Part shown: positions 39,139 to 64,000 of the stretch, piece by piece | How positions within the stretch are numbered: the stretch's first letter is position 1 | Layout: every line of letters starts with the position of its first letter | DNA from: Marsupella aquatica | Lineage: Eukaryota; Plantae; Marchantiophyta | Assembly (NCBI GenBank): GCA_973895155.1 | Contig: OZ316896.1 | Location: 14,914,684 to 14,978,683 of the forward strand | Length of the DNA stretch: 64,000 bases | Reading direction: 5' to 3' | Notes under the pieces: model-generated | The model's database searches: none | The model's input: the letters and a program-made list of their open reading frames with translations, nothing else | What the model was told of the DNA's origin: nothing | Made by a program: the position numbers and the translations under genes

Positions 39139-39159
39139 CACTACAACACAATGACCCTC

Positions 39160-39665
39160 TTTTGCGAAACACCCTCCCTCGCATGCAACAAAGGAAACAA
39201 TATCGGCCAACTCCTTGTTGCGAAACGCCGCGCATCTCAACATCTTCGCTCTTTTCCATGCCCACACCTTCGCAACCGGACCTTTGCAAAAGCTTCGCAC
39301 TTTGCGACTCTTTTAAAATCGCAAAACTGCGATGCCATACCTAACGCAATATTTGCGAAATAGGAACTATAGGAGCGTTTGCAATTCGCCGACAAACACT
39401 AATGTAGCGATGCTTAAATCATCGCCAGATTGCGATTTAGGACACATCGGTAGATTGCGAGCCATTTTTTCTCTCAATACTGCGATACATTTATATTCGC
39501 TACATTTGCGAAATTAAACACATCTCAAACGTGCGGAAATCATGTGTTCGCATATTTGCGATTGACAAAATGTCGCAAAATTTGCGAGGATGAGCGGTTA
39601 GAACATTTTGCGATGGTTGTGTCTTGGCTATTTGAGATGACATCTGGTTCTCAAGTGTTTCGCAA
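39160..39665. repeat. Left subterminal repeat region of CACTA copy 1
   Basis: Many TTGCGA/TCGCAA motifs in both orientations. Confidence 0.85.
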
Positions 39666-39919
39666 AAGGTATTTTTGAAGTATTAGGGTATAATAGGGTT
39701 TAGTGGTTTAGGGAGACAATTCATACAGTTGAAGGAGGGAGAAAACGGATGTAGGTAGACTGGAATGCCGCGATTAAAATGGCATTACTCAAAATGTACA
39801 AAAGTTACAAAATGGAAGCGTAAGAACCCTTATCTAAAAGTTGCATGTCCATGCTAATCCCCCTATACATGTGAACTACCTAAGTCTCTAGGGTAATCTA
39901 GGCACCTATCTAGATAGAG

Positions 39920-42053
39920 CTAGAAAGGAGAGTTCCTGCCCCTCCTTGACTTCTTCCCCTTGGCCTTCTCCTTGCCCTTGAGTGCTCTTGGGGGGGGACC
40001 GGGGCCTCCTCCTCTTGGTCTCCCTCCTCATCCTCATCCTCATCCTCATCCCCATCACCACCACCATCCCCATCCCCATCCCCATCACCATCACCATCCC
40101 CATCCCCTACCGCACTACCACTCGCAGCACCAGTGGAGTGTGCTGATGCAAATGACTGCTCCCCAGTGCTAGTTGGCCTGACTCAACTAGCAGGAGCAGT
40201 ACTCCCCTCCCCTGTCCCCTCCTCATCCTCATCGCTACTATCACCCTCGGTATGGGAGTCACCATCATCATCCGGTCTCTGTTACATTAGCAAACCAGCC
40301 ATGCATTAGTCATATAGAACCTTACAATTAAGTGAATGACATAAGAGGGAATTTTTCATAAATGCAATCCACACATTAACCTGAAAATTAACGCTCACCA
40401 ATAATTGATCAACTTGCCGAAAGAGATGCTCCTTCCCATGTTTCTGGCCCACCTCCATCTCAGGCGTTATGATCTTCCTCTTGTACCTCTTGTACTAACC
40501 AAAACAAAAACCGGCACAATTGGTCAAAACCAAGCAATAACGGCAAGCCAAAATGCCTTAAAACAATTAGAGGGGTTAATTAGGTGCTGGTGGGGTTGGG
40601 GCTTAGGTTGGGGGGTGGTTTTACAAGGGTGGCATGGGGGCTTACGACCCTCAAACAACACTTCAACATTTTGAAATTTTCAAAAATTCAAAATTTTGAA
40701 TTTTGCAAAGTCTCCAGCTTCGCAAACGTAAGGGAAAACTAGGTTGCAAAAGTAATTAAGATACGCATGGCTTCGCACGGGCATCGCAAAATTATTTCCA
40801 AAAAATTGAATAACAAGGTGTGCGAAGCAGTTGCAAAGCGACGCGCATCGCAATTGCTTCGCAAACTCTGTTATGACAAAAAGTCAAAAGGGAAGCAAAT
40901 GTACGTGACCTAATCTGACACAACAACTCCAATTGGAAGTACTTGGTGCCACAACAAAAAAGAGTTGGGGCATTGCAAGTGTGTTGGAATAGAAATTGGA
41001 GGAGTAAGAAGTCAAGAGAGGAGAGGGCGGTGCACTCACAAATGCTGCTTTGAGGCCGGGGAGGCCACCTTGACCAAGCCTGTGGGTGATGTTGGGCTTT
41101 TCTCGGACTCTCTCAGCTGCCTTCAAGAACTTGTTGGGCGGATCTCCCACCTCTGCTACAACCTGCTGCAGCTCGGCCACCTTCTGCTCCATCATCTTCA
41201 GGTCACGGTTAGACTTCCCGGCCTCCTTTGCCTTCTGGGCCTTTGTCAACTTCTCTGTAAATTCATTCAGGACCCTGGCTGCTTTCAACTTCACCTCCGT
41301 GGCGTAGAAGGCCTGCCAAATATCTTCTAAGAACTGCAACGGCCTCCCCAAATTCCTGTACTCCTCCAGATCTCTCAGGTGAGCCTTGATCTTCATCCTG
41401 TCATGGTATCGTGCTGGTGACATGGAATTTGAGATTTTATCAGCAAGCCACTGTGAATCCATCTCTCCTCCATTTTGGAATGCATCTTTCACCTGATTGA
41501 TCACTCGCTTCTGCTCTGCCTTGGAGAGAGTGCCCCACTCGACTCCTCTTGCAAAATTTGTGGACACAATGTGTCTGATTGTGCTCTTGGCCCCATTGTA
41601 AGCAAGCTCTGTGGGAATTCCCTCATCCTCTAATGTAATCAGAGGCAACTTCCTCCTTGCCTCCTCCTTCTTTCTCTGCTCCTCCCTCTGTTTCCTCATC
41701 AAGTCTCTCTCATCTTTCCTCCTCTTCTTTTCCAAGGCTTGAGGGGAGAGTACTCCAGCCTGAGCTCTCTCATCCCTCTTTCGCTTCTTCTCAGCGGCCT
41801 TCTGCTTGGCTGTCCTCCTTTCTTCCTCCTCTCTTGCTGCTTCCCCTGCACTGAGACCAGATTGCAAGGCCTGGCACAATAACGCACTCAACGATGCAAG
41901 CCCTGCTGGAGAGGTGAAATCAATCTTACTCAACTGCGCAACCGAGAAATGGTCATCCACGATCTTTTGAAGTCGATCCTCCTCCTCTAAGTGGTTGCCT
42001 CCGTTGCTGCCAGAAGCTCCTCCATCATCTCCAATTCCCCCTCCGCTTGCCAT
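39920..42053 (-). pseudogene. CACTA ORF2 (TnpA/Ptta-like), divergently oriented; exons 42053-41040, ~40494-40399, 40278-39920
   Basis: Exon 1 is an intact ORF with a charged coiled coil and KPNITHRLGQGG (HRLG motif of Ptta/Transposase_24-type proteins), followed by a GTGAGT donor. The acidic, Gly-rich last exon has a premature TGA and a frameshift and ends ..KKSRRGRNSPF*. A homologous gene exists in copy 2. Confidence 0.7.
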
Positions 42054-42369
42054 CACTCCTCCCTCGCCTGCGCTGCTCTCTCCCAAGGCCCGAAAGAAAT
42101 GGATCCGCCTCGTCCGCACTCGGCAAATGATAAGGATAGTAGAGTTAGGGTTTGCGAAGTCATTCGCATCGCAGTTTGCGATGGTTCTACCTTCTCAACC
42201 AGCTTCGCAAACGCTATCTTTGCGAAGAATACAGCTTCGCAAACGTGTTCGCTATTGGGTTTACGAAAACCCCCATCTTGCATGTGTATTTTCTGTGAGC
42301 AGGGATACTAAGAGGGGTCATAAACATTAAATTTGGTACAAGTAATTCATTGCATGTGATCATATAAGG

Positions 42370-42800
42370 GTTGGGGGGTTTAAAAGTGCTGACATTGGAG
42401 GGTAAGAGGAGGGGTCTTATGTTACGGCTTTTGGGTTTGGCCTGGTTGGGGGGGAGTGTTATTTCAGAAGGTTGGGGGTTATATTGGAAGGTAAGAGACG
42501 GGGATTTATATTTTGGCTTTTGGGTTTTGCCTGGTTGGGAGGGTTTTTATTTTATGAAGGTTGGGGTTATGTGTATTGGAGGGTAAATGGAGGGATTTTA
42601 TGTTTGACGTTTGGTTTGGTTGGGGGAGGGTTTATTTTATGAAGGTACGTTGGGCTTAGATTGGAGGGTAATATGAGGTGTTTTATGTTTTGGGTTTGGC
42701 CAGGGGGATTTCATTTTATGAATGTTTGGCTTATGTATTGGAGTAAGAGGAGGTGTTTATGTTTTGGCTTTTGGGGTTTAGGCCAACTTAGGAGGGAAAG
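42370..42800. repeat. G/T-rich ~88-bp degenerate tandem repeat (5 units) between the divergent CACTA genes
   Basis: TTGGAGGGTAA core at ~42396, 42484, 42576, 42661 and 42738, each followed by TTATGTTT..GGCTTTTGGGTTTGG. Confidence 0.75.
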
Positions 42801-44032
42801 ACAGGTTCTATTTTCATGGACACTTGGGTTAATTTTATGGTAACTTATGAGGGCAAGTTCTAAGAGGTTTTTATACTAACAATTGAGGGGAAAACCCATG
42901 TAATCATGATACAGCCCAGGGACATCACTACTTCTTCAACTTTTGTCTAATGCATATGCATTGTGGAGACCCAGGCATCTAAAAGGTATAACATGTATGT
43001 AGTGTTGTTAGTGGAGATTTTTCATAAACCTTGCCATTTTTTGTTTTGCAAGAATACTTATGTGTAACTTATGTTTGGGGTTCCACAACTTGAGAGATGC
43101 TAATGACTATCCAAAACTTACATTTTGTTTCCAGTATTTTCCTCCTACTTCTAGATTTGGCTCATGTTCATTGAGCCACACGACCTATAGGCACTGTTGA
43201 GCCCGGGTCTCATTCAGGTAATTCACTAACCTAATTCAGGGCTTAGACCATTACAATTTTCCCAAGGGTGACAATGTGATATTTTTGTGCATGACACTCT
43301 CCTTTGGGTTTCATGCTAAACAAAAAAGGGTTTTTGTAGTTTAGTTTTAGGATATTTTTTGGCCGAGAGGGATTCTAATCATGCCCTACATGCAATGTAA
43401 TGTGGCAGTGGATATGTCATCCTCCTCTAAACTATCCAGTAGTGAGTACTCCTCCTCCGATGATGTACCCCCTCCTCCTCAACCTGAGGTTACCGGTCCT
43501 CGTGGTCCTCCCCGGAGACTTTGTGAGTGCACCAGATGTGTGGGCCAAGTTTCTCAAAAATCTTATGTGTGTGCTCAACATATTGAGAGATATGGACGTC
43601 ACAGGGGTCTTACTCGGGGGGCTTCTTCATCCCATATGGTACGTGGATTTCAATTGTTTGCCTTTTTTCCCTCATATTTTCATAAGTGAATCAATGTTTA
43701 CACATGGTTTTTTGTGGGTTTTTGCATGGAATAGGGATCAAGTATGCGTAGACCGGTGACACCACCACCCTATGTCCCATCACAAGGAGTTTTAGATGCT
43801 ATAGGCAATGCACTTTCACAAGCCTTGGGTGTAGGGATCAGTACCAATCATGGGACTGAAGAGGAACAGTCTCATGTGCCCACTGAGACACGAAGACCCC
43901 GGTCCAGGCCCCAGTCCAAGAGGAGGCCACGAGCACCCAATGACCCATCAAGAACACTAGTTGAGGGTAGGTGGGGCATTTGTTCATTCACTGGCAAGTG
44001 TGCCTCTATCATCAAAGATTGGGATCCTATGA

Positions 44033-44330
44033 TGTTAGGAATTGACTCCAGTTCCCGACATAGTTAGCTTGGTCTTACTAGGGTTAGTTAACCCTAGATT
44101 ACATTTGGATAAGATCCGTTTAGTTTAGGCCCACTCATCTTGGCCCCCTTGGGGGGTATAGGCTGGAGGGAGAGCACTCTCTCCCTCATTCTTCACATGT
44201 ACTCTCATTTGCTATGTAGCCTTCAGGAGTTTCTCCACTCGGGGTGTCTTGTCGGTGTAGCATGTGATTGAGTGAGTCTCTCTCTCATGTTTCCGCATTG
44301 CTGTCTAGTCCGGAGCTGACGTTTCTTACA
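44033..44330 (+). repeat. Copia 5' LTR
   Basis: TGTTAGGAATTGACTCC...GTTTCTTACA, preceded by TATGA. Confidence 0.97.
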
Positions 44331-44332
44331 AG

Positions 44333-44344
44333 TGGTATCAGAGC
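44333..44344 (+). promoter_or_regulatory. Primer-binding site (initiator tRNA-Met)
   Basis: TGGTATCAGAGC, 2 bp after the 5' LTR. Confidence 0.93.
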
Positions 44345-46037
44345 TTTGTGTTCATGGTTTGGTGGCTTGGGTAGTGATGAGAGCATTCGTTGTGTTGGAT
44401 CGTGGTGGAAGATTGAATCATCGTCGATGATTGTGTGATTGTTTCACTGGTCGTTTCGCGTTGAAGATTTCGTGAATACAGTGACGGTTTCCCGATTGAA
44501 ACTTCAGCCTGGAGTGTCGGATGTGTCTCTGTTCTTTGATGTACTGTCAAGAGGACAGTCTAGCGATCTCTTATGCGCGTCGGTGGGCACTACATTTTGG
44601 TGAAGGTTTCACTGCTTTTCATCATTGGTGTGCCGAGTAATCTTGTAGATGAGGTTGCTGTTTAGAGCTTGATGCTCTAGGTTATGGCTTGTATATGTTT
44701 CGACTTAATCTTGTGTGGGGCCGAAAAAAAAGTTGTTTTCTTTGTAAAAAGGTCGTGCGTTGAGGGACCGGTGTTGCAATTTTTTTGTTTTCGTATACTT
44801 TTGTTTGTGCCGCCTCGCAACAGAATACGGCGGCGCGGATGGGTTTCTTTGCGTATGTGCGGAGAGAGGGCGAAAGGGAGATTTTATTGCCCGGGCACGT
44901 TGCCCTATGCGCGCGAGTGAGCTAGGAGGGCTCGGAATACAAAGGATTGAAGGAGGAGCAGAGGAGAAAGTCGAGCCCCTGGCCCGAGGCCCTATGAGGT
45001 ACTAGAGCACGGCCTTATGTCTGTGCAGGTACAATCGTACCTGTAAGTACAGTTTTAAAGTGAGGGGAGGGGGAGTTCAAAGCTCCCTTCTCTTGGGAGC
45101 TTTAAGGGGGCCATTGCCCTATGGAGAAGCAATAGGAGGGGAAAGGGGAAGCGAGCATACTCCTTTCCTTAGGGAGCACTTATTAACATGGGCACGAGGC
45201 CCTATGCTTGTACTTTAAGTGAGGAGGGGGAGCATACGAGGCTCCTTTCACTTTGGAGCCTTTAATTAAGGCTTGCGTCAGGTGGGTGGCCAAGGACACA
45301 AAAGGTACTACTGTACCTACACAGTACAGATTTGGGAGGGGGTACGAGGGGGTATTATATATCCCTGTACTCTGCCAGGTACAGCATACACAATAGGTGA
45401 ACAAGGAGATGGGCCGGCGTGCGACCCTATGTGCGAGAGGATTTTTTTTGAAAAGTAATTGAAGGCCGGGAGGATGATTGTAGTCTTTTCGATCTTATTT
45501 TTTTTTTGTAAAAGCCAAAGGGTTTTTACTTGTTTTCTTTTCTTTTCCTTCCGTGTTTGGATCTTTTCTTTTCCAATCGGACAGGTGTCGGCTCCACGTT
45601 CTTTCTGCTGTACATTTTTACTGTACTTTGATTCCCTGGAAAAGATACTTTTCTAGAGAGCTGATTTTTGACTGAAATTTTCAATTTCGGCGGTCGTCGA
45701 GGCAGAATTTTTTCGCGACACTTTGCAAGGGGATACTCAAGGGAGTTGAGCACGGGCTAGTGAAATTGATTTGTGCGTTGCTGTTGTGAAATTTTTTCGG
45801 GACCTAAGATACCTGACGGGGGGAAAAAAATAGCCATTTTGACCCCCCTCTGGTCCGGGTTGAATAAGTTTTTGCTGAAGAAGTTTTTCGCCAAATTATT
45901 TTCAGATCTTGGCAGTGTACCTTGCAGGCTACGCGGCGGTGCATTCCATTTCCACTTTCGCCAACTTTCAATTTTTGGTGAATTTTTGGGTGGAGGTATT
46001 TCGGTTGTGTATTTCCTTTGTGTTTGTGGCAGCATCA

Positions 46038-49000
46038 ATGACTTCAAGAAAGCTTGCAGTGCCAAAGTTTGAGGTGGAGAAGTTTGATGGGAAGGTCAGC
46101 TTCAGCCTCTGGACTCGAAAGGTGACCAATGTGTTGATCCAGCAAGGTCTTGAGAAGACCCTCACTGGAGTGAAACCCTCGAATCTAACAGATGAGGAGT
46201 GGGAGGACATGTCGGTGTAGGCATGTAGCACAATTGAGTTGTTCTTGGCAAACAACATTCTCAAGAACGTGTTGGGGATGGATCGGAATGCCAAGAAGAT
46301 CTGGGATATGCTTACTCAGCTATACCAGAGTACTTCGTTGACTACTCGCATTTATCACTTGGAGCGGCTGTTCAGGTTGAAGTTGAAGGATGGTGGCAAC
46401 ATGCGTGATCACCTCAGTCTCTTCGATGAGATTGTGCACGAGGTGACCACGGCAGGAGACAAGTTGACCGATGAGTATCTTGCGATGCATTTGTTGATGT
46501 CGCTTCCTCAGACCTATTCAACATTGGTGACGGTCATCACACATGACAAGTCTACGTTGAAATTGGATGAGGTGAAGGCTACCGTTGCAGAATGGGGCAA
46601 GCGAAAACTTTCTGGCCGTGACAATGAGTCTGCTGCCTTAGTGGTTAGAGGCAGATCGACGGAGCGTACTACGGATCAGTCTAGATCTAAATCACATAGT
46701 AGATCTAAATCTAAGTCCCGTAGTAAGAAAGTTCAGTGTTGGCATTGCCATGAGAAGGGCCACACCAAGTGGAATTGTCCTTCTCTATCGAAGCAAAAGC
46801 GTCCTGCTTCCAATGGTGCATCCTCATCGTCAGCTGGTATTGTGATTGCTGATAATGAGGATGCTGCTGAAGTGCTATGTATTGGTGCTGTGAATTCTGT
46901 GTATGACAATAAATGGATGTTGGATTCGGGTTCCTCTTATCACGTGTGTCCAACGCAATCGTATTTCTCCACTTACCAACCTTGTACCGGTACGGTGGAA
47001 ATCAGAAATGGTGTTCGATGTGCGATTGTTGGCATGGGGACTATCAAATTCCGGATGTTTGATGGTGTTGTGCGAGCATTGACGGGAGTCAGGCACATAC
47101 CAGACATCTCTAAGAACTTGATTTCTCTTGGTGCTTTGGAAGCTGGTGGATCTCATTTCACTGCACGTGATGGTGCGCTCTTTGTCGTCAAAGATAATGT
47201 ATCTTTGATTAAGGCGCTACGGCAGAATAATTTGTACATCTTGGAAGGAGATGTCATTGCTCCTAGAGTGGAGCATGTGGATTCTGTGATGGAACGTTCG
47301 GATGCAGCAGCAACATCTGCTATAGAGTCATTTACGGCTGCTTCAATTGAAGCACCCTCAACATCTGGTCGCACACAAGCCATAGATTTGTGGCATGCAC
47401 GGTTGGGGCACTTAAGCGGTAAAGGATTGGCAGCCTTGGCAAACAGAGATTTGCTGCAAGGCGCTCAATCTGGTAAACTCTCTTTCTGTGAAGATTGCAT
47501 CTTCGGCAAGCAGAGGAGAGTGAGTTTTAGTTCTAGTTCATACCATTCTCATGAAATTCTTGAGTATGTACATTCGGATGTTTGGGGTCCAGCGCCGGAG
47601 CCGTCGTTGGGTGGAGCCAGATATTTTGTGACATTTGTAGATGATTACTCTCGAATGTGTTGGTTGTACTACATGAAGGAGAAGTCTCAAGTCTTTGAGA
47701 TTTTCAAGGAGTGGAAAGCCATGGTAGAGCTCCAAACTGGGAAGGAGTTGAAGTGTGTTCGGTCCGATAACGGTGGCGAGTATAAGTCCAATGAGTTTGA
47801 TCAATTTGGTCGGGACCTTGGCCTCAAGCGTCATTACACTATACCGGAGACCCCGCAGCAGAATGGAGTTGCAGAACGGTTGAATCGGACATTACTGGAG
47901 AAAGCACGCAGCATGCTATGTAAGTCCAAGTTGCCCAACAACTTTTGGGCTGAAGCTATCAACCAAGCTGCATACGTCTACAATCTGTCACCGCATAGTA
48001 GTAAGTTGATGCAGACTCCATTTGAGTTGTGGTATAAGAGACCTGCTGATTACTCTAGACTTCGAGTTTTTGGTTGTGCTGCCTATGTTTACATTGAGCA
48101 GACACACAGGTCTAAGTTGGATCCCAAGTCTAAGAAATGTATTTTTCTAGGCTTTAGTCCTGGGCAGAAGGGCTATAAATTGTGGGATCGTGTCGATTGC
48201 AAGGCAGTTGTGAGCAGAAATGTTGTTTTTGACGAAGAATGGTTGTCAAGACCCCGGGATATTCAGGAGGAACAGGTGGAGGAACCCACTACGGTGGAGC
48301 TTGGTGGTGATGAGGAAGCTGTTGGTCCCTCTGGTAGAGGAGCAATTCATCAACCAAGGCGCTCCACCAGGGCCAATTTTGGCCAACCCCCTGATAGATT
48401 TGGTTTTGCAGATCCTCGTGTTCACGTTGTTGAACATGACGTTGATCCCGGTGTTGTTTTGCTTACTGAACATGGAGACCCCTCTAGCTATGAAGAAGCT
48501 ATGGCCTCTCCAGAGAAGGATAAATGGTTGGAGGCGATGTTGAAGGAGATGAATTCTTTGAAGAAGAATTCAACTTGGCGCTTAACTGACATGCCTCGCG
48601 GGAAAACACTGGTTCCGTGTAGATGGTTGTACAAGAAGAAGCAGGATGGCACTTACAAGGCACGCCTTGTGGCCAAAGGGTACACCCAGAAGGAGGGCTT
48701 GGACTACACGGAGATTTTCTCACCAGTTGTCAAACTCGCTACTATCCGTGTTTTACTTGCGATTGTGGCATTCTATGATCTTGAGTTAGATCAGATGGAT
48801 GTAATTACTGCTTTCCTGCATGGATTGCTTGATGTAGAGATTTATATGACTCAGCCTCCAGGTTTTATTGACGAGAAGACCAGACACTTGGTGTGTAAGC
48901 TCTTGCGCTCGTTATACGGATTGAAGTAGAGTCCCAGACAATGGAATAAGCGTTTTGATTCCTTCATGTTATCTCAGGGGTTCACACGAAGTGAACATGA

Positions 49001-50674
49001 TTGTTGTATTTACATGAAGGAGGTGAAGAATTACTCACGTTTAGGTTACATTGTGCTGGCATTGTACGTGGATGACATGCTTATCCGGACCCAAAAGGAA
49101 CGTCACACTCAGAAGTGACCATAGTTTATTATGCTTTAGGACATCATTTGTAAGGTGTAATGAGATGATATGCAAAATTTGATGTACTATACTTAATAAA
49201 CATCCTGTAGGTTGGTAACATTAATTAAACTATCTAGCATTTGAGACTTTGAAGCTTTCCTTATATGTCCTTCAAAGATCGATAAAAGGACTTGTCACGC
49301 AACGAGTCACATCATTTCAGGACTCGAAAGGACTCTAAAACTTGCATTTTAGACAATGAAATTTTACCAAGGCATGCATACTAATAGAATAATCTTATAT
49401 TTTAAAACTCAAATATTGACACACACTAAACCTTTATGTACAGGACAAAAATAATTAGTAATTTTGGCTTATTTAGGGCCATCAATAATAGGATCCCTTA
49501 AAAAAGTTAAAAACTTGATTTATCTACATGGTGAGGTAGGTTACACCATGTAAAATTATCTTGTGAAAAAATTAGACTTAAATGTCTTGAGATAAAATCA
49601 TGATGAAGCTTTTTCCATGTTACGAAAGTCATTTTTCACTAAAAAAACATGTTTTTGAGTCTTGAAAGTGGTTCCTGTGAGGTACACCCAGTTGTGAATG
49701 AGGCCATCCTGGCTGAGAATAAGTCTGATGTTGCCCATCTGAAAGCAATGCTGAGTAAGGAGTTTTCAATGAAGGACTTGGGTCAGGCCAAGAAGATACT
49801 AGGGATGGAGATTCATCGTGACAGGGAGCAAAGGCAATTATGGTTGTCTCAGAGGCAGTATTTGGAGAAGGTACTTGCCAAGTATGGAATGGAGAATGCA
49901 AAACCAGTTGGTACTCCATTGGCCTCCCACTTTAAACTCTCAAAGGATGATTGCCCTTCTAGTGAGAGTGATAGACTGGCAATGAAACATGTTCCCTATG
50001 ATAGTGTTGTGGGTAGTTTGATGTATGCAATGACATGCACTAGACCTGACATTGTCCACGCTATTAGCATTTTGAGCAGATTTATGGCAAATCCTGGTAA
50101 GCTTCACTGGGAAGCAGTGAAGTGGGTTTTGCGGTATCTGAAAGGTACCTTAGATTGTGGGATCTTATTTGACGGTAAAGCAGACTCTACATTAGAATTG
50201 GAAGGTTTTGTAGATTCAGATTATGCTGATAACTTGGATAACAGGAAGTCTACTACAGGCTATGTGTTTATGCTGGGTTGAGGTTGTATCAGCTGGAAGT
50301 TGGCAACTCAATCTTGTGTTGCGTTGTCTACTACTGAGGCTGAGTACATGGCTGCATGTGAGGCAACCAAGGAGCTGATCTGGCTAAGGAGATTGGTGAG
50401 TGATCTGGGTCTTTCACCTAAAAGACCGGTGTTGCTGTGCGACAGTCAAAGTGCTTTGCATCTGGCTAAGAACCCTGTGTTCCATGCCAGGACAAAGCAC
50501 ATTGATATTCGTTATCACTTCATCCGTGAGACGATTGAGACGAAGCAGATGTTTTTGGAGAAGGTGGCTTCAGAGGAGAATGCGGCAGACATGCTTACCA
50601 AAGTTTTACCTACCAGTAGCTTTAGTCATTGTGTGGATATTATTAATGTTAGGGCCAAACTGGAGACTATGTAA
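46038..50674 (+). pseudogene. Copia gag-pol polyprotein (disrupted)
   Basis: KFEVEKFDG; Zn knuckle CWHCHEKGHTKWNC; protease WMLDSGSSYH; GAG-pre-integrase WHARLGH; integrase VHSDVWGP, RSDNGGEY, QQNGVAER; RT YKARLVAKG, QMDVITAFLHG, LYVDDML; RNase H VDSDYA, STTEAEY, ENAADMLTK. Stops at 46220, 48929 and 50281; insertion at 49087. Confidence 0.95.
49087..49705. mobile_element. 619-bp AT-rich non-autonomous insertion in the Copia RT, with 4-bp TSD
   Basis: Flanked by ATCC (49083-49086, 49706-49709); termini GG...CC. Removal restores YVDDMLILAENKSD. Confidence 0.85.
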
Positions 50675-50741
50675 ATATGTTACTTAGTTGCATATTGTAT
50701 ATCACCTGACTCATTGTGTGAACTTGAGTCAAGGTGGAGAT

Positions 50742-51039
50742 TGTTAGGAATTGACTCCAGTTCCCGACATAGTTAGCTTGGTCTTACTAGGGTTAGTTAA
50801 CCCTAGATTACATTTGGATAAGATCCGCTTAGTTTAGGCCCACTCATCTTGGCCCCCTTGGGGGGTATAGGCTGGAGGGAGAACACTCTCTCCCTCATTC
50901 TTCACATGTACTCTCATTTGCTATGGAGCCTTCAGGAGTTTCTCCACTCAGGGTGTCTTGTCGGTGTAGCGTCTGATTGAGTGAGTCTCTCTCTCATGTT
51001 TCCGCATTGCTGTCTAGTCCGGAGCTGACGTTTCTTACA
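50742..51039 (+). repeat. Copia 3' LTR
   Basis: Copy of 44033-44330, preceded by the PPT and followed by TATGA. Confidence 0.97.
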
Positions 51040-51826
51040 TATGACTCTTGGCTTGCCTTATTTTCCCGGTTATGATGAGGAGATTGTGGTTTGGGGTAGA
51101 CGTTGGATTGTGAAAGCTTCCACACTTGGAGAGAGACACAGATATGGAGTATTTGCTTGTGAGGATATCATCATGGATGATGGGAGTGGGTCAAGTGCTC
51201 ATGGTAGAGAGGGTCCTACTTTATTCCCATACGGTGTACCCATCTACAAGAGAAGACACTGGAACATGATCCTTGCAGAACATCCTGAGTGGAAAACATA
51301 TGCCTTGGAGATGGATACTTTTCATGGTAGCACTAGAAGGTATAGTGAGCAGCGGGTGATAGACGATGATCCCGTACGTAATGGGAATATTGCTGGCTTT
51401 ATAAATAGTACTGTGGGGATTCGACCCAAGCGTAGGGCCAATTGTGAGTGGGTTTTTTATTGATGGCCCAATGCCGGCACCATATGGAACGACATATCAT
51501 AAGGACCATTGCTTAGTTCTTGCCACTAGGACTATTAGAGCTGGAGATGAGTTATTCACACACTATGAGTGGGATTAGGGAGCCATGTCATACATCCTCT
51601 TGTACCTTGTGTGTACTTCACACTTATCATTATATACATGTCCTCTGGCCTCATTTTGGAGTAGTATAATTTTGGTGTGGCCCTTCACTTAAGTTCTTAA
51701 TGTGAATGCATGCAATCAATCCTTAAAACTGATTGTTAATTTGTCTTGAATGAATGGTCTGAAGTCTGTTTTTTTTGTACCTGGTGAAATATACATCAAG
51801 AGGTTTTTTGGTTGTGTCGTGCGTAG

Positions 51827-54800
51827 AATGTGCAACCATCTCAACAAATGTTACCACGAAGGTTGAGAGCAGCATATCGGGAGATGGGCATGCCAGAAGA
51901 GGGAGAACCATCAGAGGATGATTCCTCATTAAGTAATGATGTAAGTGATCATGGTGATGAGGAAGCAACACCTCAGACTGATGACCAGGTCATGCATGAC
52001 CAGGACAGAGCCATGGATGACTTCATGGTTGATTGGTTTGGTGCTGATGTTGAAGATGGTGTCCCTGACATTAGTGTTGAAGGAGCTGCCCCCCAAAATG
52101 ACCCACGATCACAACATACTCCAGAGGGACAACAACAATGGAAGGAGGCTGCGGAACATGCCCGAACACCTATCTTTGAGGGTGCTCGGTTGAGTCGTTT
52201 GTCAGCCATATTGGGGTTGTTGAACATTCAGGCCAAACATAAGGCAAGCAATTCTATGTTATCAGACATATTTGAATATTGTCATGACTTGATGTTACCC
52301 TTGGAGAATGTGTTGCCTGGAACTTGGAAGGATGCAAAGAAGATTCTCTCATCCATTGGCATGGATTACCATATCATTCATGCCTGTGTGAATGATTGCA
52401 TATTATTTCATGGGGACAAAGCCCATATGACAGAATGCACAGTATGTCATGAGCCACGGTATGACCCAAACATGCTAACCGGGAAGGTGCCAAGAAAAGC
52501 AGTTCGTTGGTTCCCCATTATTCCTCGTTTGTTGCACATGTATAGATGTTCTGACTTGGCCGAGTTGATGGTATGGCACAAGAAGCATCGTTCGGAGCCC
52601 GGTGTGATGCAATTACCAGTTGACTCTCCTGCTCATAAACATGTGGAGTCAACATGGCCAGATTTTGAGCGTGACCCTCGGCATGTGCGACTTGGGTTGG
52701 CATCAGATGGGGTTAGCCCTCATTCACTTGGAGGGAAGGGGAGACCTACATCAGTTTGGCCAGTGGTTCTCATGAATTACAACCTTCCACCATGGTTGTC
52801 CATGAAAAAGGGTTTTTTATTGCTATCTTTGATTATCCCAGGGCCAAAGAAGGTGAAGAACATGGACACCTATTTGGCATTAGTGGTTGAGGAACTCCAA
52901 AAATTATGGGACGGAATATGGGCATATGACGGTCAAAAGACTACAGGGGGTACCCCACGGGTTTTTAAACTAAAAGGGGTTTGTATGTGGACCATGCATG
53001 ACTACCCAGGTAAGAACTATGAAACTACAACACTTTTTTTTGTTTACATCCAGCATGATATGATAATGCATGTTATCCCGTCATTTCCATGTGCTAATTC
53101 TACATTATGTGTGTCTATATGACCAGGATTTGGCTTTGTGAGTGGGTTGCAAACCCAAGGCTACAAGGCTTGCTCCACTTGTGGCCCAAGTCTTGGTGAT
53201 ATAGCCAAGTACTCATCACACCTTCACAAGATTGTTTATCTTGGGCATACAAAGTTTCTGCCAATGGGCCATCAGATGAGGTTTGACCCACTACTATTTT
53301 CCTCCATTGATATGCCCTTTGGTGATGAACGTGATATACCAGAGCCAACAACTTTTGCACATTGGAAAGACTTGGCTGATAGAGTGGCAAACCCGGAGGA
53401 TCCCATGCAATTTGAGGGTAGCGGGTTGACTAGATGGAGTATATTAACCACTTTGCCTTATTGGGGAGATCGAGTTGAAGATCCGCCATCTATTAGACCC
53501 CATGCACATTGAGGGAAATGTGGGAAAGGCTTTCTATGGAGAAAAGGACACTAACTTCAGGGAGGCTTGTGAGGATCTTGAGATGCATCCAGATGTATGG
53601 GTCACAATTGATCCTATCACAGGGATAGAACATCGACCTTCAGCCCCATGGGTGCTTCCTGTTGGCCAGAGAAGGGAGTTTAGGAATCGCATAGGAGGCA
53701 TGCGGTTTCCTACTGGTTATGGTGCCAATCTCCGGAAGGCCTTTGGGATGGAGGACAATCATAAGTGGCCAATGTATCTCAAGACGCATGACTATCATCG
53801 GTTATTGCAGCATATATTGCCCGTGGCCATAATAGGTTTGGCAAGTTCAGAAGTGCAAGATGCCATTTGGTCATTGGGAAAACTATTGAGATGGGTATGT
53901 TCTAAGGAGATATACTGTGAAGAGATCCCGGGAATGGAGGTACTGGCAACAGAGGTGGTATGCAAGTTAGAAAAGGCCCTTCCTCCTTCCTTTTTTGATT
54001 GCCAAGTGCATTTACTTGTTCATCTTGTTCATGAGGTGGCCATTGCTGGTCCTGTGCATTGTCGGTGGATGTATTGGTTGGAATGGTACATGGCAGTATT
54101 AAAGGGTTATGTACGTAATCGGGCACGGGTTGAGGGAAGCATGGCTACAAGATACTTGGCAGCAGAGAGTATGTTCTATTGCAGTAACATATTAGCCACA
54201 ATTGATCGTACCTCTCCCCGTACTTGGGTAGAGGAGAGGGAAGATGAGGAGGATCGTTTAACAGGTGCTATCAAAACCCGCATGTTGACACCAGTGGAGT
54301 TGAAACAACTAACCACATTCATGTTGAGTAACAGCACTATCATGGAAGAATGGAGGGATTTCTATGAGGATGCCAAAAGTACCAGTAGAAGACCAAGGAT
54401 CTTTCCAAAGTACCATGACTACATGAAGGAGAAGTTGGTTGAGGTGGATGACATGGTAGCGAGGGGAGAGAATGTATTACATTTTCTAGCCATCACAGAT
54501 GATGTCCGTACCATTGTTCATGGTCCCTTGAGAATGGTTACAACAAGGACGGCAATGTGGACACAAGGGAGACATTTCAGGTTATTTCCAAGTACCTTAG
54601 TAACCTTTCATCTATGGTGATTTTAATTTATGTGTAATACACCCACATATATTGAAGAGACAATTTTTTGGCATGTGATATTAATTGTTATATGTTTATG
54701 CCTATTTTTGTAACATGTCCTTATGGTTTGGTTGATTTTAGGGTTTCTTCCCTTGATGAGAAGAGGGGTCGTACCTTTGATTGTGGAGTTCAAGGACAAT

Positions 54801-55231
54801 TCTCTCAAGATTCCCGCAGCAGTCGCCATGACACAAATATTATTCGAGATGTTGTGCCACATTATGGAAAGATAGAGGAGATCCTAGTGATCTCTTATGA
54901 TGCACAATCAAAGTTAAATGAAGAGTATGTCTTCAAGTGCAAGTGGTTCAAAGTGAACCTTGCAGGTAACAATCCCACCGTGCTTCAAGATGAGTGTGGA
55001 TTTACACGGCTAAAGACATCTGCCACTAGTTTCTAGCCATCTCATTGGCAAACATCAGAGCCGTTCACTTTTCCAAGTCATGTGGAACAATGTTTCTATA
55101 TTCCATACCCCCCAAACCCAGAGGAATGGTCACTTGTCATCACATATGTGCCACGATCTCGTTCAGTTGTTGGGGAAAAGCCAGATATTCTGGTTGTGTC
55201 CCAACCTGAAGAGGATGAGGACCAAGTTTGA
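51827..55231 (+). pseudogene. CACTA transposase (TnpD/Tnp2; Transposase_21, DUF4218, DUF4216), copy 1; exons 51827-53009, 53127-54580, 54742-55231
   Basis: IHACVNDCILF, YFP-like WFPIIPRL, RHVRLGLASDG, WPVVLMNYNLPP, MHDYPG, RHLLDPMHIEGN, LKTHDYH, PPSFFD..VHLLVHL, GPVHCRWMY, LKGYVRNRARVEGS, FKCKWF, EPFTFPSHVEQCFY. Frameshift at ~53470 and stop at 55036. Confidence 0.95.
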
Positions 55232-55919
55232 GGGGTATATGTTATGTGGATATATAGTTAGATTTGAACATATGAGGATCTCTCTTCTTGGTTGGAGAAA
55301 TATGTGTTTCTAAATGATTAATAAATTTATGTTTGCCCAAATCAATCTTGTAAGTATATCAATTTTAAATGTGGCTTTTTTACATCTTCCATCCCCACAG
55401 TCCTATGTACACTCCCACACCTTTTGGTACACTTTATGAAAAGAAAACTCATCTCGCTTGTAGTCATTCCTCCTCGTAGCTTTCCTTCTCCCACCCCCTA
55501 GCCTTTCTCTCTAGTACTTGTACCCACCTCCCTCCTCCCCTTGTCTCAACCCCTTCCTTTTTAAAACCTATAGATGCCCTCAATTTTTTCCACCTTTCAC
55601 TGTCCTCAACCTATGCTCCTCCCTCCTTGGCTTGTCCCTCTCCTAAACCTATACCTTCCACCCTCCCTCCCTCCTCCCTCCTTTCCTTTTCCCTCCCTAA
55701 ACTGTAGGTAGGTACGCTCCCTCCTCCCTCATTTCCTTGTGCACCCTAAACCGCCCTACTCCTCCTCCCTTTGTTCCTTGTCCCCCCTTAAGTCAACCCT
55801 TCCTCCTCCTTTTCTTCCTAAAGTGTGCCTCCTCCCTCCTCCCTCCTCTCTCCTTGACCCTCCTTCCTCCATTCCTTGTCCCATGCCCTTTCTAAATCTG
55901 ACCAACCCCAAAACCAAAT

Positions 55920-56445
55920 TTCCGAACCATTTTGCGAACCCCCACCCATCTCAACCTAATGGCTACATTAACGATCCCTACCTCATCGCTAGATCCCATC
56001 CCAACACCATCGCTACATTCCGAAGCAACTCGCATCTCAACTTTCCGAAACTCAAGCCTTCTCTAAAGAGAACCACTGAGGCGCCATGATTTTGCGAGCC
56101 ACAATATCTCGCAAACTAGCGATTCTCTTAGTTTTGCTGTATTGCGATTAATTTTGCATCGCACGCCGCTTTCAGATAACAAAAATATCACAACGTTATC
56201 GATGCAATCGGCGTCGCAAGTTGTTTGCGAAACGGTAAACATCGCTACTAAGTAGAATGCTCAAAGGTTCAGAAACATTTTGCGACATATTTGGTTTTGC
56301 AAATATTTGCGAAGATGTTGGTTTCACAAATAATGGTTGCGAGAGTGTCAGTGTCGCAGTTTGAGATGCGGTTTGCATCGCAAGATGAGTGATGAACGGC
56401 GCTTTGCGGTGCGTTTATCCCCTTGTAATTGACCTTCGCAAAAAT
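55920..56445. repeat. Right subterminal repeat region of CACTA copy 1
   Basis: Dense TTGCGA/TCGCAA motifs, preceded by a C/T-rich low-complexity tract at ~55480-55880. Confidence 0.85.
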
Positions 56446-56466
56446 GGCAAATATGTAGTAGTGTGA

Positions 56467-57777: not shown

Positions 57778-58460
57778 CACTACAACACTACCCACACCTT
57801 TTGCGAACTTGAAAGCATCGCAAACAACAAAGGAAATCAAAAAACAAAACTCGCCTTTGCGAAGTATCGCGCATCGCAATAGAATCGCAAATTGCGAAGC
57901 CCAAAGGTTCGCATCCGGTCTTTCGCAAGACCTTCGCAACGCCTTCGCAACTTGCGACACTAATAGAATCGCAAAGGACTCACATTTAAGCGACTCCGTG
58001 GGCGTCGCGAGAGGCTTGCGATAATAATCAAGCAGTTAAATATTTGCAATCCCAGAAGTTTGGTAATCGGTTTGTGATATTAAGTTAATGGTAGTTATGC
58101 CATGAACATGGCTTCGCATTTTTGTGAACGTATGTGGTTTGCATAATGTTTGCGATACCTTCAATATGGTAAATATGCGAATTGGGTTGTTCGCATAGGT
58201 TTCGCAAGATGTCTTGAGGCTAGGGTTTAGATTTAGAGTTTTGAATTATGGTTGGGGTCTTGTCGTCCAACACGGAGAATGAGGTCTGAATCAAAATTGC
58301 TTTATAGAAAATTGATAGGTACACAAAAATTAGGGTTTCCTAAACCCTAAACCCTAGATGGGTGTCATATGACAAGCTAGGTCCCTATAAGACTACCCAT
58401 ATCAAAACTATATACTACACTAAGTAAATGGGCATCCCATAGGCACTACACCACCAAGCT

Positions 58461-59737
58461 CTAGAATGGGGTCCTCCTACTCCTTGTCGCCGGCCTCTTC
58501 CCCTTGTCCCTCTTGCGACAATCCGGACGTGGCACAGGAGGTGGTGCTGGCTGCTCCTCCACATCTGGTTCCTCCTCGTCCTCGTCCTCATCCTCTTCCT
58601 CCCCCTCCTGCTGGGAAACTCCTCCTACTGGTCTAGATCCACTACTCCCTCCTACCTTGGGCCCCTTTGTCGTGGTCCCCTCATTGTTCTCATCGGTGCT
58701 GCTGGTATCACTGGCATCCTCATCATCCTGTTTGCACAGCACAACGCCAAATTGGTTTAGGTTTACGGAATGAAAAGATAAGTGGATTGGGTGGGAAAAA
58801 CTGAAGGGGATACATGCACTTACAGTCGCCAACTCTGCGTCAACCAAGTCAAAGAGATGTTTGGCTCCATGCGCAGCTCCTATCTCCATCTCTTTTGCTG
58901 TTATCTTCCTGCGGTACCTCTTATACTACCACAACCAAACATTCCAAAACTTTCTCAGCCATTGCCTTGAGCTCTCGGTCGGACTTCCCGGCCTTCTGTG
59001 CCTTGGCTTCCATCTCCTTCCAGAAGAGAAGGTTCCTGGCAGCTCTCATCTGCACCTCCACTTTGTAAAAGGCATTCCACACGTCCTCAGTGAATTGCAG
59101 TGGCCTCCTCACGTTTCTGTACTCCTCCAAGTTTGCCAGGTAGGCCCTTACCTTCTTCCTATCATGGTACCGTGCTTGAGACATTTGCCTTGTTGAGTTT
59201 CCCCCACTCAACTCCTCGTGCAAAATTGGAGCGCACCATAAGCCTGATAGTGCTCTTTGCCCCGGTGTAGGCCAGTTCAGTAGGAATGCCTTCGATCAAG
59301 GCAATCATAGGCAGCTTCTTCCTCTCTTCCTCCTTCTTTCGCTGCTCCTCCCGCTGTGCTCTTATCTCATCTCGTTCCTCTCTCCTCCTCTTCTTTTCTA
59401 GGGCAGCAGGTGAGACTACTCCTGCCTTGGCCCTCTCCTCCTTCTTACGCTTCTTCTCTCTTGCCTTCTGTTGAGCTGCACTCCTTTGCTCCTCCTCCCT
59501 TGCAATGTTCCCTGCATCTACTCCCGTTTGCAAGGCTTGCCCAAGGATTGCACTCAAAGAAGCAATCCCTGCTGGTGTAGTCAAATCTAAGTGGCTCAAC
59601 TGTGCTGCATTGAGGTGCTCAGCCATCAAATCGGTCCATCGATTCCTCTCCTGCTCCCCATTGCCTTCATTCCCATTGCCACTGTCACTCACCCCTGCCC
59701 TATCACCTCCATTTGCTCCACTGGAATCCATAGCCAA
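58461..59737 (-). pseudogene. CACTA ORF2 (TnpA/Ptta-like), copy 2, internally deleted
   Basis: Homologous to 39920-42053 (EGIPTELAY.GAKSTIR, NFARGVEWG, ARYHDR, LEEYRN). Frameshifting deletion at ~59190, and loss of the HRLG segment plus most of intron 1 at ~58940. Ends ..RSRRTPF*. Confidence 0.75.
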
Positions 59738-61030
59738 GCCACCCCCCGAGCGCGCGCGAGCTCCCTTCTCCCTCCCTACGCTTGAAATTTGTCAAATGCC
59801 GCTGAGTACGCCGCGGCCGAGTGCAAAAGTACAAGCGGGAAAGACTTGCGAAGCAACCCGTTTCGCAAGTTGCGATTCTTCTTGTTTCGCATATAGTTTC
59901 TCAATTTTGTGAAACCATTGCGACGTGAAAGGCTTCGCAACACCTTCGCTCTCTCATAGAAATGCTCTCGGGCTCTGTTTTTCTGAAGGTCTTGCGAAAG
60001 CAGCAGCTTCGCAAACCTCAATTCTAATTTGTGATGGTATTTGCGAAGGAAGCGGCTTCGCAAGACATTGGCAACTCGTCCTGGGGGAATGTTGGTTTCA
60101 TTTGAAAGGGTTTTTTTCAAAGGTGAAGTGGACCCCTCTATACTCATATTTGGAATGCTTTTTGGCCATGTTTTGGGTGTTAGATAATAGTTGAAGGCGG
60201 GTTTGAAGGGTTAGGCAGATTTCAGGTTAATGGGTTATGTATGGTGTTGGTTTAGGCTAAGGTTTGGGTTTACATTAGTTTAGAAGAAATAATAAAGGTG
60301 TGGGATTTAGTTTACAAGAAATAAGTAAGGTTTGGGTTTAGGGTTTTAGGGTTTGGGGTTTTTAAATAGAAAGGTCTCTAGGGTTGAAGAAAGATTTGGG
60401 TTTGTGTGTAAGTCAGATTTAGGTTTAATAGGTAGGATGCGGTTTGGGGTTGAAGGTTTGGATAAGACAAAGCAAGGTTTCATGAGATTTATATTGCAGC
60501 CTTTTGGGTTTAAGAGAGGTTCATTGGGTTTATGAATCAAAAGGGGATTGGCATGGGTTTTGCTAACAAAGGAGGGGAATATATGATAGCTTGCAGGGTG
60601 CGGCACTTTTTGATGATTTGATACTAATGCATATGCATTGTGAGAGCCCGGGCATCTGAAAGGTAAACATTGCATGATCGGCTAAAGTGTTCCTTTCATG
60701 TACTTAACACTTTTGGTTGCCACTATGTATAAAGGGGACATGTATATAGGGTTTTTTGTTCTTGTCTGGTCCAGATTATTGTGCTTACATATACATGGAA
60801 TGGTTGCAGCTTTTCCCTCATACTTTCAGATTGGGTTCATTAATTATCTTAGAGCCACAAGAGCTATTGGCACTGCTGAGCCCGGGTCTCATAAAGGTAC
60901 CTTTTTTATTGCTATGGTCATTTTGGTTTGGGTTTCTTGTCATCATTATTTGGGAACTTTGATTTATATCATTTTGTGGTATGTTTTGGTCATAACATGC
61001 CCATTTTAATTATATCTTGTTACAGGGGAT

Positions 61031-62183
61031 ATGTCTTCATCTTCTGAAATCTCCACCACAGACTCGTCCTCCTCTGATGAAGATACACCACCTCCACCTC
61101 AACATCACACGACCGCACCTCCTCCTCGCGGTCCACCCCGTCAACTTTGTGAATGTTCCAGATGTGTGGGTCAGGTTTCCCAAAAATCTTACATATGTGC
61201 CCAACATATTGAGAGATATGGGCGTTGTGGACGTCATACGGCAGGGGCTTCTTCATCTCATATGGTAAGTGTTATGCCTTAGTTTTCCTACCCTATTCCC
61301 ATTACTCAATGGTTGAAGGTTTGCAATTTCACACCTACTTTTGTTTGTTTTGGTTTCGGTGGAATAGGTATCCAATAGGCCTAGACCTGCGGCACAAGCA
61401 CCCTATGTCCCATCACAAGGTGTTCTAGATACTATAGGCAATGCATTCTCAAAAGCCTTGGGTCTAGCGGCAAGGCCCACCAGTCCTAGGGAAGTTGGGG
61501 TTGAGGCTATTGTCCCAGGAGGGAGAAAGCGTTCCAAGAGGCGGGCCCGAGGGGATACTGATTTGTACAAGGCAGTGGTTACGGGTCGGTGGGGTGATTG
61601 TGAGTTCACTGGCAGATGTGTCCCTATCATCAAGGACTGGGATCCTGAGACTCTTGGTTTGCCACAACAGCTTTCCTACGGTGCGGAGGTAGAGGTTTGG
61701 GGTAGACGTTGGGTTATCAAACCTTCCACACTTGGGGATAGACATGGCTATGGAGTTTTTGCCTGTGAGGACATCATTGTGGACGCCGAGAGTGGTAGAG
61801 GTGGACGCGGCCGAGAGGGGCCTACTTTGTTTCCTTATGGTGGACCCATCTACAAGAGAAGACATTGGAACATGATCCTTGCACAACACCCTGAGTGGAA
61901 GACTTATGCATTGGACATGGATACTTTTGATGGAAACACTAGAAGGTATAGTGAGCAGCGTGTCATAGATGGGGACCCCATACGGACTGGGAATATTGCT
62001 GGTTTCATAAACAGTACCGTGGGGACTCGCCCTAAGCGTAGGCAAAATTGTGAGTGGGTTTTCATTGAGGGTCCTCCGCCAGCACCTTATGGCCAGACAT
62101 ATCATCATGACCATTGCCTAGTTGTAGCAACAAGGACCATTAACTCAGGGGATGAGTTATTTACTCACTATGAGTGGGATTAG
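61031..62183 (+). CDS. CACTA-borne ZnF-SET domain protein, copy 2, apparently intact: exons 61031-61264 + 61368-62183 (~349 aa)
   Basis: ATG|GTAAGT donor and GAATAG acceptor join in phase 0. Exon A has CECSRC..C..H. SET motifs: KPSTLGDRHGYGVFA, PYGG, GNIAGFINS, NCEW, LVVATRTINSGDELFTHYEWD*. Confidence 0.88.
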
Positions 62184-62359
62184 GGTTAAGTTAAGGGTCA
62201 TAGGTGGTATGTTGCATATCAAAGGGCACTACATATGGCCTTTGGCCACATTTTGTATTTGCACCACAACCAATATTATTTCATTTTTGCACACCCCTAG
62301 CCCATTTGTGTGTGTGTTCTCTTTGCAATATAACTTTCAATTGTTTGCTTTGTTTTTAG

Positions 62360-64000
62360 AATGTGCGACCCTCTCCAAATATGTTACCACGGAGATTGAG
62401 AGCAACATATCAAGAAATGGGTATGCTAGAAGAAGGACATGGATCAGAGTCACACTCCTCATCAAGTGCTAGTGGAAGCAGTAACCCTGATGAAGAGGTA
62501 CCTCAGACGGATGAACAAGTAACTGATGACCAGGATAGAGCCATGGATGACTTTATGGTTGATTGGTTTGGTGCCGACAACCTTGGTGATGACCTTCCCA
62601 ATGAAGGGTAGGTGCCCCCCAATGATCCACACCCAAGACATACCCCTGAGGGACAACGCCAATGGGAAGAAGCAGAGGAACATGCCCGAACACCTATCTA
62701 TGAGGGTGCTCGTTTGAGTCGTCTTTCAGCCATCTTGGGGTTGATGAACCTACAGGCCAAACACAAGGCAAGCAATGCCTTGTTATCTGATATGTTTGCA
62801 CTTTGCCATGACCTTATGTTGCCCACTGAGAATGTGTTGCCAGCAACTTGGAAGGAGGCAAAGAGTGTTCTCTCATCTATTGGCATGGAATATCATATTG
62901 TTCATGCATGTGTGAATGATTGCATGTTATTTCATGGGGCCAATGCAAACATGACACAATGTACAACATGTGATGAGCCTCGCTATGACCCCAACATGCT
63001 AACAAAGAAGGTGCCAAGGAAGGCTGTTCGTTGGTTTCCCATCATTCCTCGGTTGTTGCACATGTATCGGTGTTCTGACTTGGCAGAGTTGATGGTATGG
63101 CATAAGACTCATCGATCAGAGTCTGGTGTCATGCGGTTGCCAGTTGACTCCCCTGCTCACAAACATATTGAGGCAACATGGCCAGACTTTGCACATGATC
63201 CTCGCCATGTGAGGCTAGGATTGGCATCTGATGGAGTTAGCCCTCATTCACTTGGAGGAAAGGGGCAACCTACATCAGTTTGGCCTGTGGTTGTCATGAA
63301 TTATAACCTCCCACCATGGCTATCCATGAAGAAGGGGTTCCTTTTATTGTCTTTGATTATCCCAGGTCCAAAAAAGGTGAAGAACTTTGACACTTACTTG
63401 GCACTATTGGTTGGAGAACTTCAAAAATTATGGAATGGAGTGTGGGCATATGATGGCAGGAAAATTACAGGAGGTTTTCCACGTGTCTTTCAATTGAGAG
63501 GGATCATTTGTTGGACAATGCATGACTATCCTGGTAAGATGACTTCCATGCCATTTGCAACCCTTCAATAATGTGTAGTTCCTATTGATGTTTCTCATGT
63601 GACAACTCTAACATAAAGTTTGCATGGTTTGATTTCTTCTATGTAAGCAGGGTTTGGTTTTGTCTCTGGATTGCAAACTCAGGGGTACAAAGCTTGCTCT
63701 ACTTGTGGCCCAAGCTTAGAGGACATGGCCACATATTGTTCATGGATTAGAAAGATTGTTTATATTGGGCATACAAAGTTTCTTCCCATGGGGCATGAGA
63801 TGAGGTTTGACCCACTTCTATTCTCCTCCTTTGACATGCCATTTGGTGATGAGCGTGAAATTCCTGATGCAACAAGTTTTGCACATTGGAAGTCACTAGC
63901 TGATAGGGTGGCAGACCCAAATGATTCCTTCACCTTTGATAGGACAGGTTTGACCAGGTGGAGTATACTAGCCACTTTGCCCTATTGGTCTGAGTTGAAG
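62360..64000 (+). pseudogene. CACTA transposase, copy 2 (exons 62360-63533, 63651->64000); one in-frame stop at 62611
   Basis: Highly similar to copy 1 (HACVNDC, RHVRLGLASDG, NYNLPPW, MHDYPG); same intron position after MHDYP. Confidence 0.93.

Follow-up and report, generated by a model that had tools for sequence, protein, structure and literature searches.

Several described transposons resemble single aspects of the locus analysed here. In maize En/Spm and in Arabidopsis EN/SPM3 and EN/SPM7, TnpA and TnpD are produced by alternative splicing, according to the available text of PMC13547354 and bioRxiv 10.64898/2026.08.24.746577; a term search of what was accessible of the latter returned no mention of moss, bryophyte or methyltransferase. 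Plavaka elements of the EnSpm lineage in red algae carry PAG2, a PF00856 SET accessory gene, and Helitrons are described in the same account to have captured SET (bioRxiv 10.1101/2025.02.11.637652), as HarbingerS and MuDR families of Phytophthora also bear SET genes (PMC12730594). SET-carrying transposons have been reported from oomycetes and red algae, and the accessible parts of those accounts give no tested function. Some proteins through which plant transposons evade silencing are known, VANC and TnpA among them, and these are not of the SET type. Transposon-borne SET genes and alternative splicing in En/Spm are already known separately, and the combination of both in land plants was not found in the parts of the literature searched. 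Likewise, our searches found no paper on SET-bearing CACTA elements of bryophytes; Repbase, subscription journals and bioRxiv supplements lay outside their scope and could already hold the family.

The window, a stretch of 64,000 nt from the liverwort Marsupella aquatica (contig OZ316896.1, positions 14,914,684 to 14,978,683 of the forward strand), contains one CACTA family in two diverged copies that share their orientation. Its larger features, in window positions, are as follows.

39139–56463, plus strand: CACTA element copy 1, complete, with CACTAC...GTAGTG ends and a 3-bp TGA duplication, measuring about 10.3 kb once the copia insert is subtracted
41001–42119, minus strand: main exon of a third gene of unknown family, divergent from the exon A unit
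44033–51039, plus strand: copia LTR retrotransposon splitting the SET exon of copy 1, with a TATGA duplication and LTRs differing at 6/298 nt
57778–64000, plus strand: CACTA element copy 2, which has its left end at CACTACAACAC and its right end beyond the window
about 58960–59710, minus strand: third gene of copy 2, 57–62% identical to that of copy 1, with an internal deletion

Both copies are elements of the CACTA (En/Spm) superfamily. Copy 1 starts at 39139 with CACTACAAC, ends at 56463 with CACTACTAC on the minus strand and is flanked on both sides by TGA; CACTACAAC also opens copy 2 at 57778. Pfam searches identified Transposase_21 (PF02992) at E-values of 4e-38 and 1.7e-37 and DUF4218 at 2.4e-19, and 57 of the 66 TTGCGA matches fall within 2282 nt that make up the element ends and the surroundings of the minus-strand gene, in segments chosen post hoc. 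CACTA ends, 3-bp duplication, a transposase with PF02992 and DUF4218, and subterminal repeats are features that the locus shares with En/Spm, EN/SPM3 and EN/SPM7 as far as the available text describes them. The TTGCGA repeats, often in inverted pairs, are located at 39139–39700, 40650–40900, 42130–42300, 55900–56463, 57778–58250 and 59820–60080, that is at the element ends and on both flanks of the minus-strand gene, the shared promoter region included. In each copy, the minus-strand gene is followed on the plus strand by the predicted non-coding exons U1 and U2 and then by exon A, the SET exon and the transposase exons. Neither copy is intact: copy 1 has frameshifts and stops, and the transposase exon of copy 2 is interrupted by a stop. 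The exons of the plus-strand unit are given below, with reference to L001, a relative recovered from metagenomes.

42986 (copy 1) and 60663 (copy 2), plus strand: U1, a further predicted donor, conserved in both copies and L001
43135–43217, plus strand: U2 of copy 1, counterpart of U2 in copy 2
60810–60896, plus strand: U2 of copy 2, predicted 5′ non-coding exon, conserved in both copies and L001, without a shared open frame
43414–43638, plus strand: exon A of copy 1, 75 codons, phase-0 donor at 43639
61031–61264, plus strand: exon A of copy 2, 78 codons, acceptor AG at 61024–61025, phase-0 donor at 61265
43735–51578, plus strand: SET exon of copy 1, split by the copia element, frameshift near 51460
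61368–62183, plus strand: SET exon of copy 2, open, 271 codons and a stop, first in-frame Met at residue 169
51827–55232, plus strand: transposase exons of copy 1 with PF02992 and DUF4218; introns are predicted to begin at 53010 and 54581, and a frameshift and a stop lie further downstream
62360–63533, plus strand: transposase exon 1 of copy 2 with PF02992, interrupted by a stop at 62609; ATG codons lie out of frame at 62361 and in frame at 62381

We propose, with a probability of roughly 0.7, that one transcript of this family is spliced in two ways by alternative 3′ processing, giving either a protein that joins the zinc-finger-like exon A (ZnF) to SET or one that joins it to the transposase. 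If the near acceptor is used and polyadenylation follows the SET stop, ZnF–SET (349 aa in copy 2) would result; if the SET exon is skipped within a 1095-nt intron, a full transposase would result, complete with the Cys/His module usually found at its N-terminus, so that both products would compete for one pre-mRNA. The initial annotation had already proposed SET as an alternative terminal exon located in the intron between exon A and the transposase, and this arrangement is backed by phase, selection and start-codon logic. The SET exon would be a gain inside the first transposase intron. A clear poly(A) signal after the SET stop was searched for by sequence and was not found. CSB-PGBD3 reportedly contains an alternative terminal exon within an intron, a layout like the one proposed here. 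As in the available descriptions of En/Spm, EN/SPM3 and EN/SPM7, two proteins are predicted from one transcription unit; in contrast to En/Spm, where the second product is an HTH regulator, it would here be a SET enzyme, whose exon lies upstream of the transposase core. In SETMAR (PMC8616336), SET likewise adjoins a transposase. By the accounts available, however, SETMAR and CSB-PGBD3 are domesticated host genes that gained a transposase, while here a mobile element gained SET, and the two domains appear to be used alternatively and not fused.

All six predicted splice sites of the initial annotation, three per copy, proved to be correctly positioned and in phase 0. Exon A terminates in ATG|GT in both copies, and the SET acceptors (61368 and 43735) as well as the transposase acceptors (62360 and 51827, both TAG|AAT GTG) are in frame with their own ORFs. 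Since a TAG codon precedes all four acceptors, neither the SET nor the transposase ORF extends upstream unspliced. It should be noted that joining of exon A to SET, together with homology of the copies, would already fix the SET phase; the phase of the transposase acceptor is therefore one 1-in-3 coincidence and not six, and phase agreement taken alone is weak support. The transposase acceptor itself looks real, because the two copies are identical at 16/21 nt after the AG compared to 11/21 before it, and because a more divergent copy (runs X1 and X3) aligns from the TAG at 62357 onward, with a different T-tract before it. Contigs from 4 runs, not recorded as RNA, contained no joint at the predicted splice positions, a result that has no bearing on expression. 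Upstream, U1 comprises conserved stretches at 60640–60662 in copy 2 and 42965–42985 in copy 1, U1 and U2 of L001 span 285–495, and the 3′ sequences of the U1 and U2 exon ends are alike. U2 is 75% identical between the copies, compared to 45–60% in introns, which suggests a regulatory role. These two conserved non-coding exons were not mentioned in the initial annotation and make other splice routes possible.

Purifying selection acts on exon A as well as on the SET and transposase exons, all three of which are hence working protein-coding sequence; dN/dS is 0.17–0.21 in exon A (three core pairs including L001, and the exon as a whole), 0.14 in SET and 0.13 in the transposase. For copy 1 against copy 2, dS amounts to 0.76–0.85 across the three exons, as expected if they travelled together. 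This bears on the idea that the SET exon is passively carried host cargo without a role for the element, which we find barely credible: CACTA elements do capture gene fragments, by the accounts available, yet a dN/dS of 0.14 at a dS of about 0.8, a single Sphagnum cluster with 360 member sequences and a SET core about 80% identical between Sphagnum and Calypogeia speak against it.

For copy 2, splicing of exon A to SET would seem close to forced. The first in-frame Met falls beyond the GxG motif (residue 127), retention of the intron between exon A and SET leads to a stop codon in copy 1, copy 2 and L001, and U2 of copy 2 lacks an ATG, leaving exon A as the sole available start for this SET exon; intron retention was discarded on account of these stops. 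In addition, exon A is joined to SET at the same point in 20 stored gene models from Sphagnum and Calypogeia, all of them predicted models. A SET protein without ZnF could nevertheless arise if exon A served the transposase alone and SET was translated from a U2-to-SET-acceptor transcript, starting at a Met just inside the SET exon. Such a Met is present at residue 4 in copy 1, at residue 6 in L001 and in many Sphagnum 263-aa models, which renders this route possible there. As copy 2 has no Met before residue 169 of the SET exon although the part upstream is conserved, and as its U2 contains no ATG, this route cannot hold in the copy 2 subfamily; the early Met is also missing in Calypogeia model P0001, and we regard an unshared ZnF as improbable for the family. 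A single fusion of ZnF, SET and transposase, similar to SETMAR and produced via a donor inside the SET exon, would agree with Sphagnum model P0028, which joins exon A, a partial, truncated SET and a transposase stretch. In copy 2, however, the SET exon offers no phase-0 donor scoring at least 6/9, the strongest shared donor (62050) is in phase 1, and copy 1, copy 2 and L001 all keep the SET stop. We therefore rejected such a fusion on donor phase and consider it very improbable.

The alternative processing of one transcript further predicts that exon A can serve as the N-terminal module of the transposase. Exon A consists of a Ser-rich, acidic and Pro-containing N-terminus followed by a C-x-C-x2-C-x13-H-x4-G core, which is in register in 17/17 exon A sequences. 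The initial annotation had likened it to the transposase-associated domain PF13963 and named an HMM search as the check; the likeness holds for the core and fails at the Pfam level for the window itself, where exon A of neither copy matched any Pfam family at E<=10. Relatives consisting of exon A only, searched against Pfam as a check independent of the profile comparison below, gave PF13963 as best match in 3/8 cases (E 0.025–0.08, 13.6–15.2 bits, below the gathering score of 27.7), the match spanning just 26–32 of the 74 PF13963 positions. Angiosperm PF13963 domains carry the H in 16/19 and the G in 12/19 cases at matching spacing, in a set from which 3/22 were left out for a missing Cys pattern. 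Profile–profile comparison of the exon A family with these 19 regions gave a gapless alignment of 31 columns with a probability of 73% and a score of 27.4, compared to at most 15.9 in 100 column shuffles, a test that is partly circular because the angiosperm domains were cut by the Cys pattern. On a profile built for this analysis, exon A of copy 2 scored 7.7 bits, a value reached by 2/1000 shuffles, and one off-frame stretch among 833 window frames scored above both exons A. In the reverse direction, the exon A profile reached at best 5.4 bits against 40 angiosperm transposases, which is not significant, with its top matches on the Cys motif; against the PDB it gave a single chance-level match, and an Atlas search with exon A gave no usable match. 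Neither the N-terminal helix nor the WxxHGE tail of PF13963 is present in exon A. Because PF13963 is the best match in three relatives only below the cut-off and no match at all for the window exons, exon A is likely a reduced homolog and not a formal member, probably a stripped-down PF13963-like core.

Splicing of exon A to the transposase is likely, judged from the sequence. PF13963 is carried by 22/40 long transposase homologs, and no PF13963-like motif was detected by profile in the window transposase exon (below 0 bits). The predicted spacing between ZnF and transposase core is 150–153 aa, compared to 88–133 aa in 17 angiosperm proteins (2/19 were mis-anchored). In the opposite arrangement, exon A would serve SET only, the transposase would be translated from an ATG of its own (MLPRRL) on a transcript joining U2 to 62360, and the agreement in phase would be due to the 1-in-3 chance. 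Indeed, the MLPRRL ATG (transposase codon 8) is present in both copies without a variant among the matches listed, and separate-gene layouts are known in Arabidopsis EN/SPM from the available text of PMC13547354. No stored gene model joins exon A directly to a transposase, the 14 matches of the exon A profile over 1.84 billion representatives comprised 2 joined to SET, 11 continuing into the intron, 1 frameshifted and 0 joined to a transposase, and a longer-protein search with exon A returned 4 matches among 9 candidates, none with a transposase. The phase-0 donor of exon A is retained in 10/11 of the read-through relatives. Start at MLPRRL would, however, be hindered in both copies by an ATG in another frame that begins at base 2 of the exon, 20 nt upstream, and opens a 12-codon ORF overlapping the MLPRRL ATG; no such cost arises if AAT GTG are internal codons. 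Moreover, the resulting protein would miss the Cys/His module present in those 22 homologs, while a matching module sits one intron upstream. The seven codons before MLPRRL show 4 nonsynonymous changes and 1 synonymous change and no purifying signal, being too few to judge. Overall, we hold a separate transposase start to be unlikely and retain exon A as probably shared between both products. Should both splices be real, the balance between transposase and chromatin enzyme would be set by the choice of splice and poly(A) sites, and the exon in common would offer a handle on the transposase-associated Cys/His module, for which a literature search found no functional study.

The SET exon can be assigned from its sequence to the SET lysine methyltransferase fold class: PF00856 was found at 27–28 bits, above the 22.4-bit cut-off, and in 36/39 relatives, and Atlas placed it at 0.97 in a Streptophyta SET cluster. 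A PDB sequence search with the exon matched no SET entry. SET domains are characterised by the functional motifs GxG, YxG, NHS and ELxxxY. The family retains GxG, YxG, the Asn and the terminal Tyr, Ser or a similar residue replaces the His of NHS family-wide, and the protein ends 3 residues after the terminal Tyr; the product probably has protein methyltransferase activity. In a fold model with a pLDDT of 58, the matches listed were all SET or PR domains, with SETD8 and MLL on top at E of about 1e-3 and none at E<=0.001, and the top rank of SETD8 in this model is too weak to name a substrate class. A first model had been set aside (pLDDT 45).

Bryophyte transposons bear H3K27me3 or H3K9 methylation according to the available text of bioRxiv 10.1101/2022.10.24.513474, and the SET enzyme might counter these marks on the element. 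We tentatively suggest that it acts as a protein-lysine methyltransferase keeping element chromatin open for expression or excision, a role for which a self-serving chromatin helper would be the most likely form by analogy with VANC. The VANC anti-silencing proteins of VANDAL elements cause DNA hypomethylation (PMC5735166). They are a likely functional analogue, being, like the proposed SET helper, self-directed chromatin accessory proteins of a plant DNA transposon with short target repeats; in contrast, VANC acts on DNA methylation, with no SET described in the accessible text, and function is shown for VANC and proposed here. Plavaka PAG2 is similar in being a PF00856 SET accessory gene of an EnSpm-superfamily element, and differs, by the available description, as a separate gene fused to an adenine methylase domain, with no transposase-shared exon mentioned. 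HarbingerS, MuDR and Helitrons equally contain a transposon-borne SET methyltransferase, in other superfamilies and hosts and, in what was accessible of those accounts, without mention of exon sharing. That the shared ZnF itself does the targeting, as the initial annotation suggested, is the weakest step and doubtful, being less likely than the open-chromatin role of SET. For the third gene, Pfam and PDB searches gave no meaningful match. Its C-terminal half, examined by eye, seems reminiscent of TnpA-type proteins. TnpA-like proteins are called restricted to flowering plants in the available text of PMC13547354 and bioRxiv 10.64898/2026.08.24.746577. The product of this minus-strand gene, which the initial annotation did not mention, is as good a candidate DNA binder as the ZnF.

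The best named relatives of the SET exon come from the liverwort Calypogeia fissa (73%), Sphagnum (56–83%) and Riccia (39%), which points to a bryophyte as the likely host. The CACTA family is likely one of liverworts and mosses. A metagenome search was positive for 1/123 candidates, namely L001, which contains U1, U2, exon A and SET and ends 225 nt past the SET stop, before any transposase. Viral contigs gave 0/7 candidates and prokaryote genomes 1/38 (L002), where the match covers 36 residues of a SET-like, apparently bacterial ORF. In the SET tree, copy 2 is located near metagenome sequences and Calypogeia, at a resolution too low to show transfer; from the sequences, horizontal transfer between Sphagnum and liverworts is possible. 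The full scenario, in which a land-plant transposon produces a transposase and an active histone methyltransferase as competing splice products, the shared ZnF exon brings the enzyme to the element or transpososome as a self-targeted anti-silencing switch, and the element has possibly spread horizontally between mosses and liverworts, seems rather unlikely to be right in all its parts. With a conserved SET within a high-copy CACTA family of genera with reference genomes (Sphagnum, Calypogeia, Riccia), the question whether a transposon writes its own histone mark becomes directly testable.

The SET core identity between Sphagnum and Calypogeia mentioned above (proteins P0001, P0003 and P0095) is high for a transposon across the moss–liverwort split. 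Regarding copy 1, its promoter region contains degenerate tandem repeats of about 89 nt at 42388–42800. The copia insertion is young, given its few LTR differences; its class was read by eye from the ORF order, and an AT-rich insert of about 600 nt is visible by eye within it near 49085–49680.
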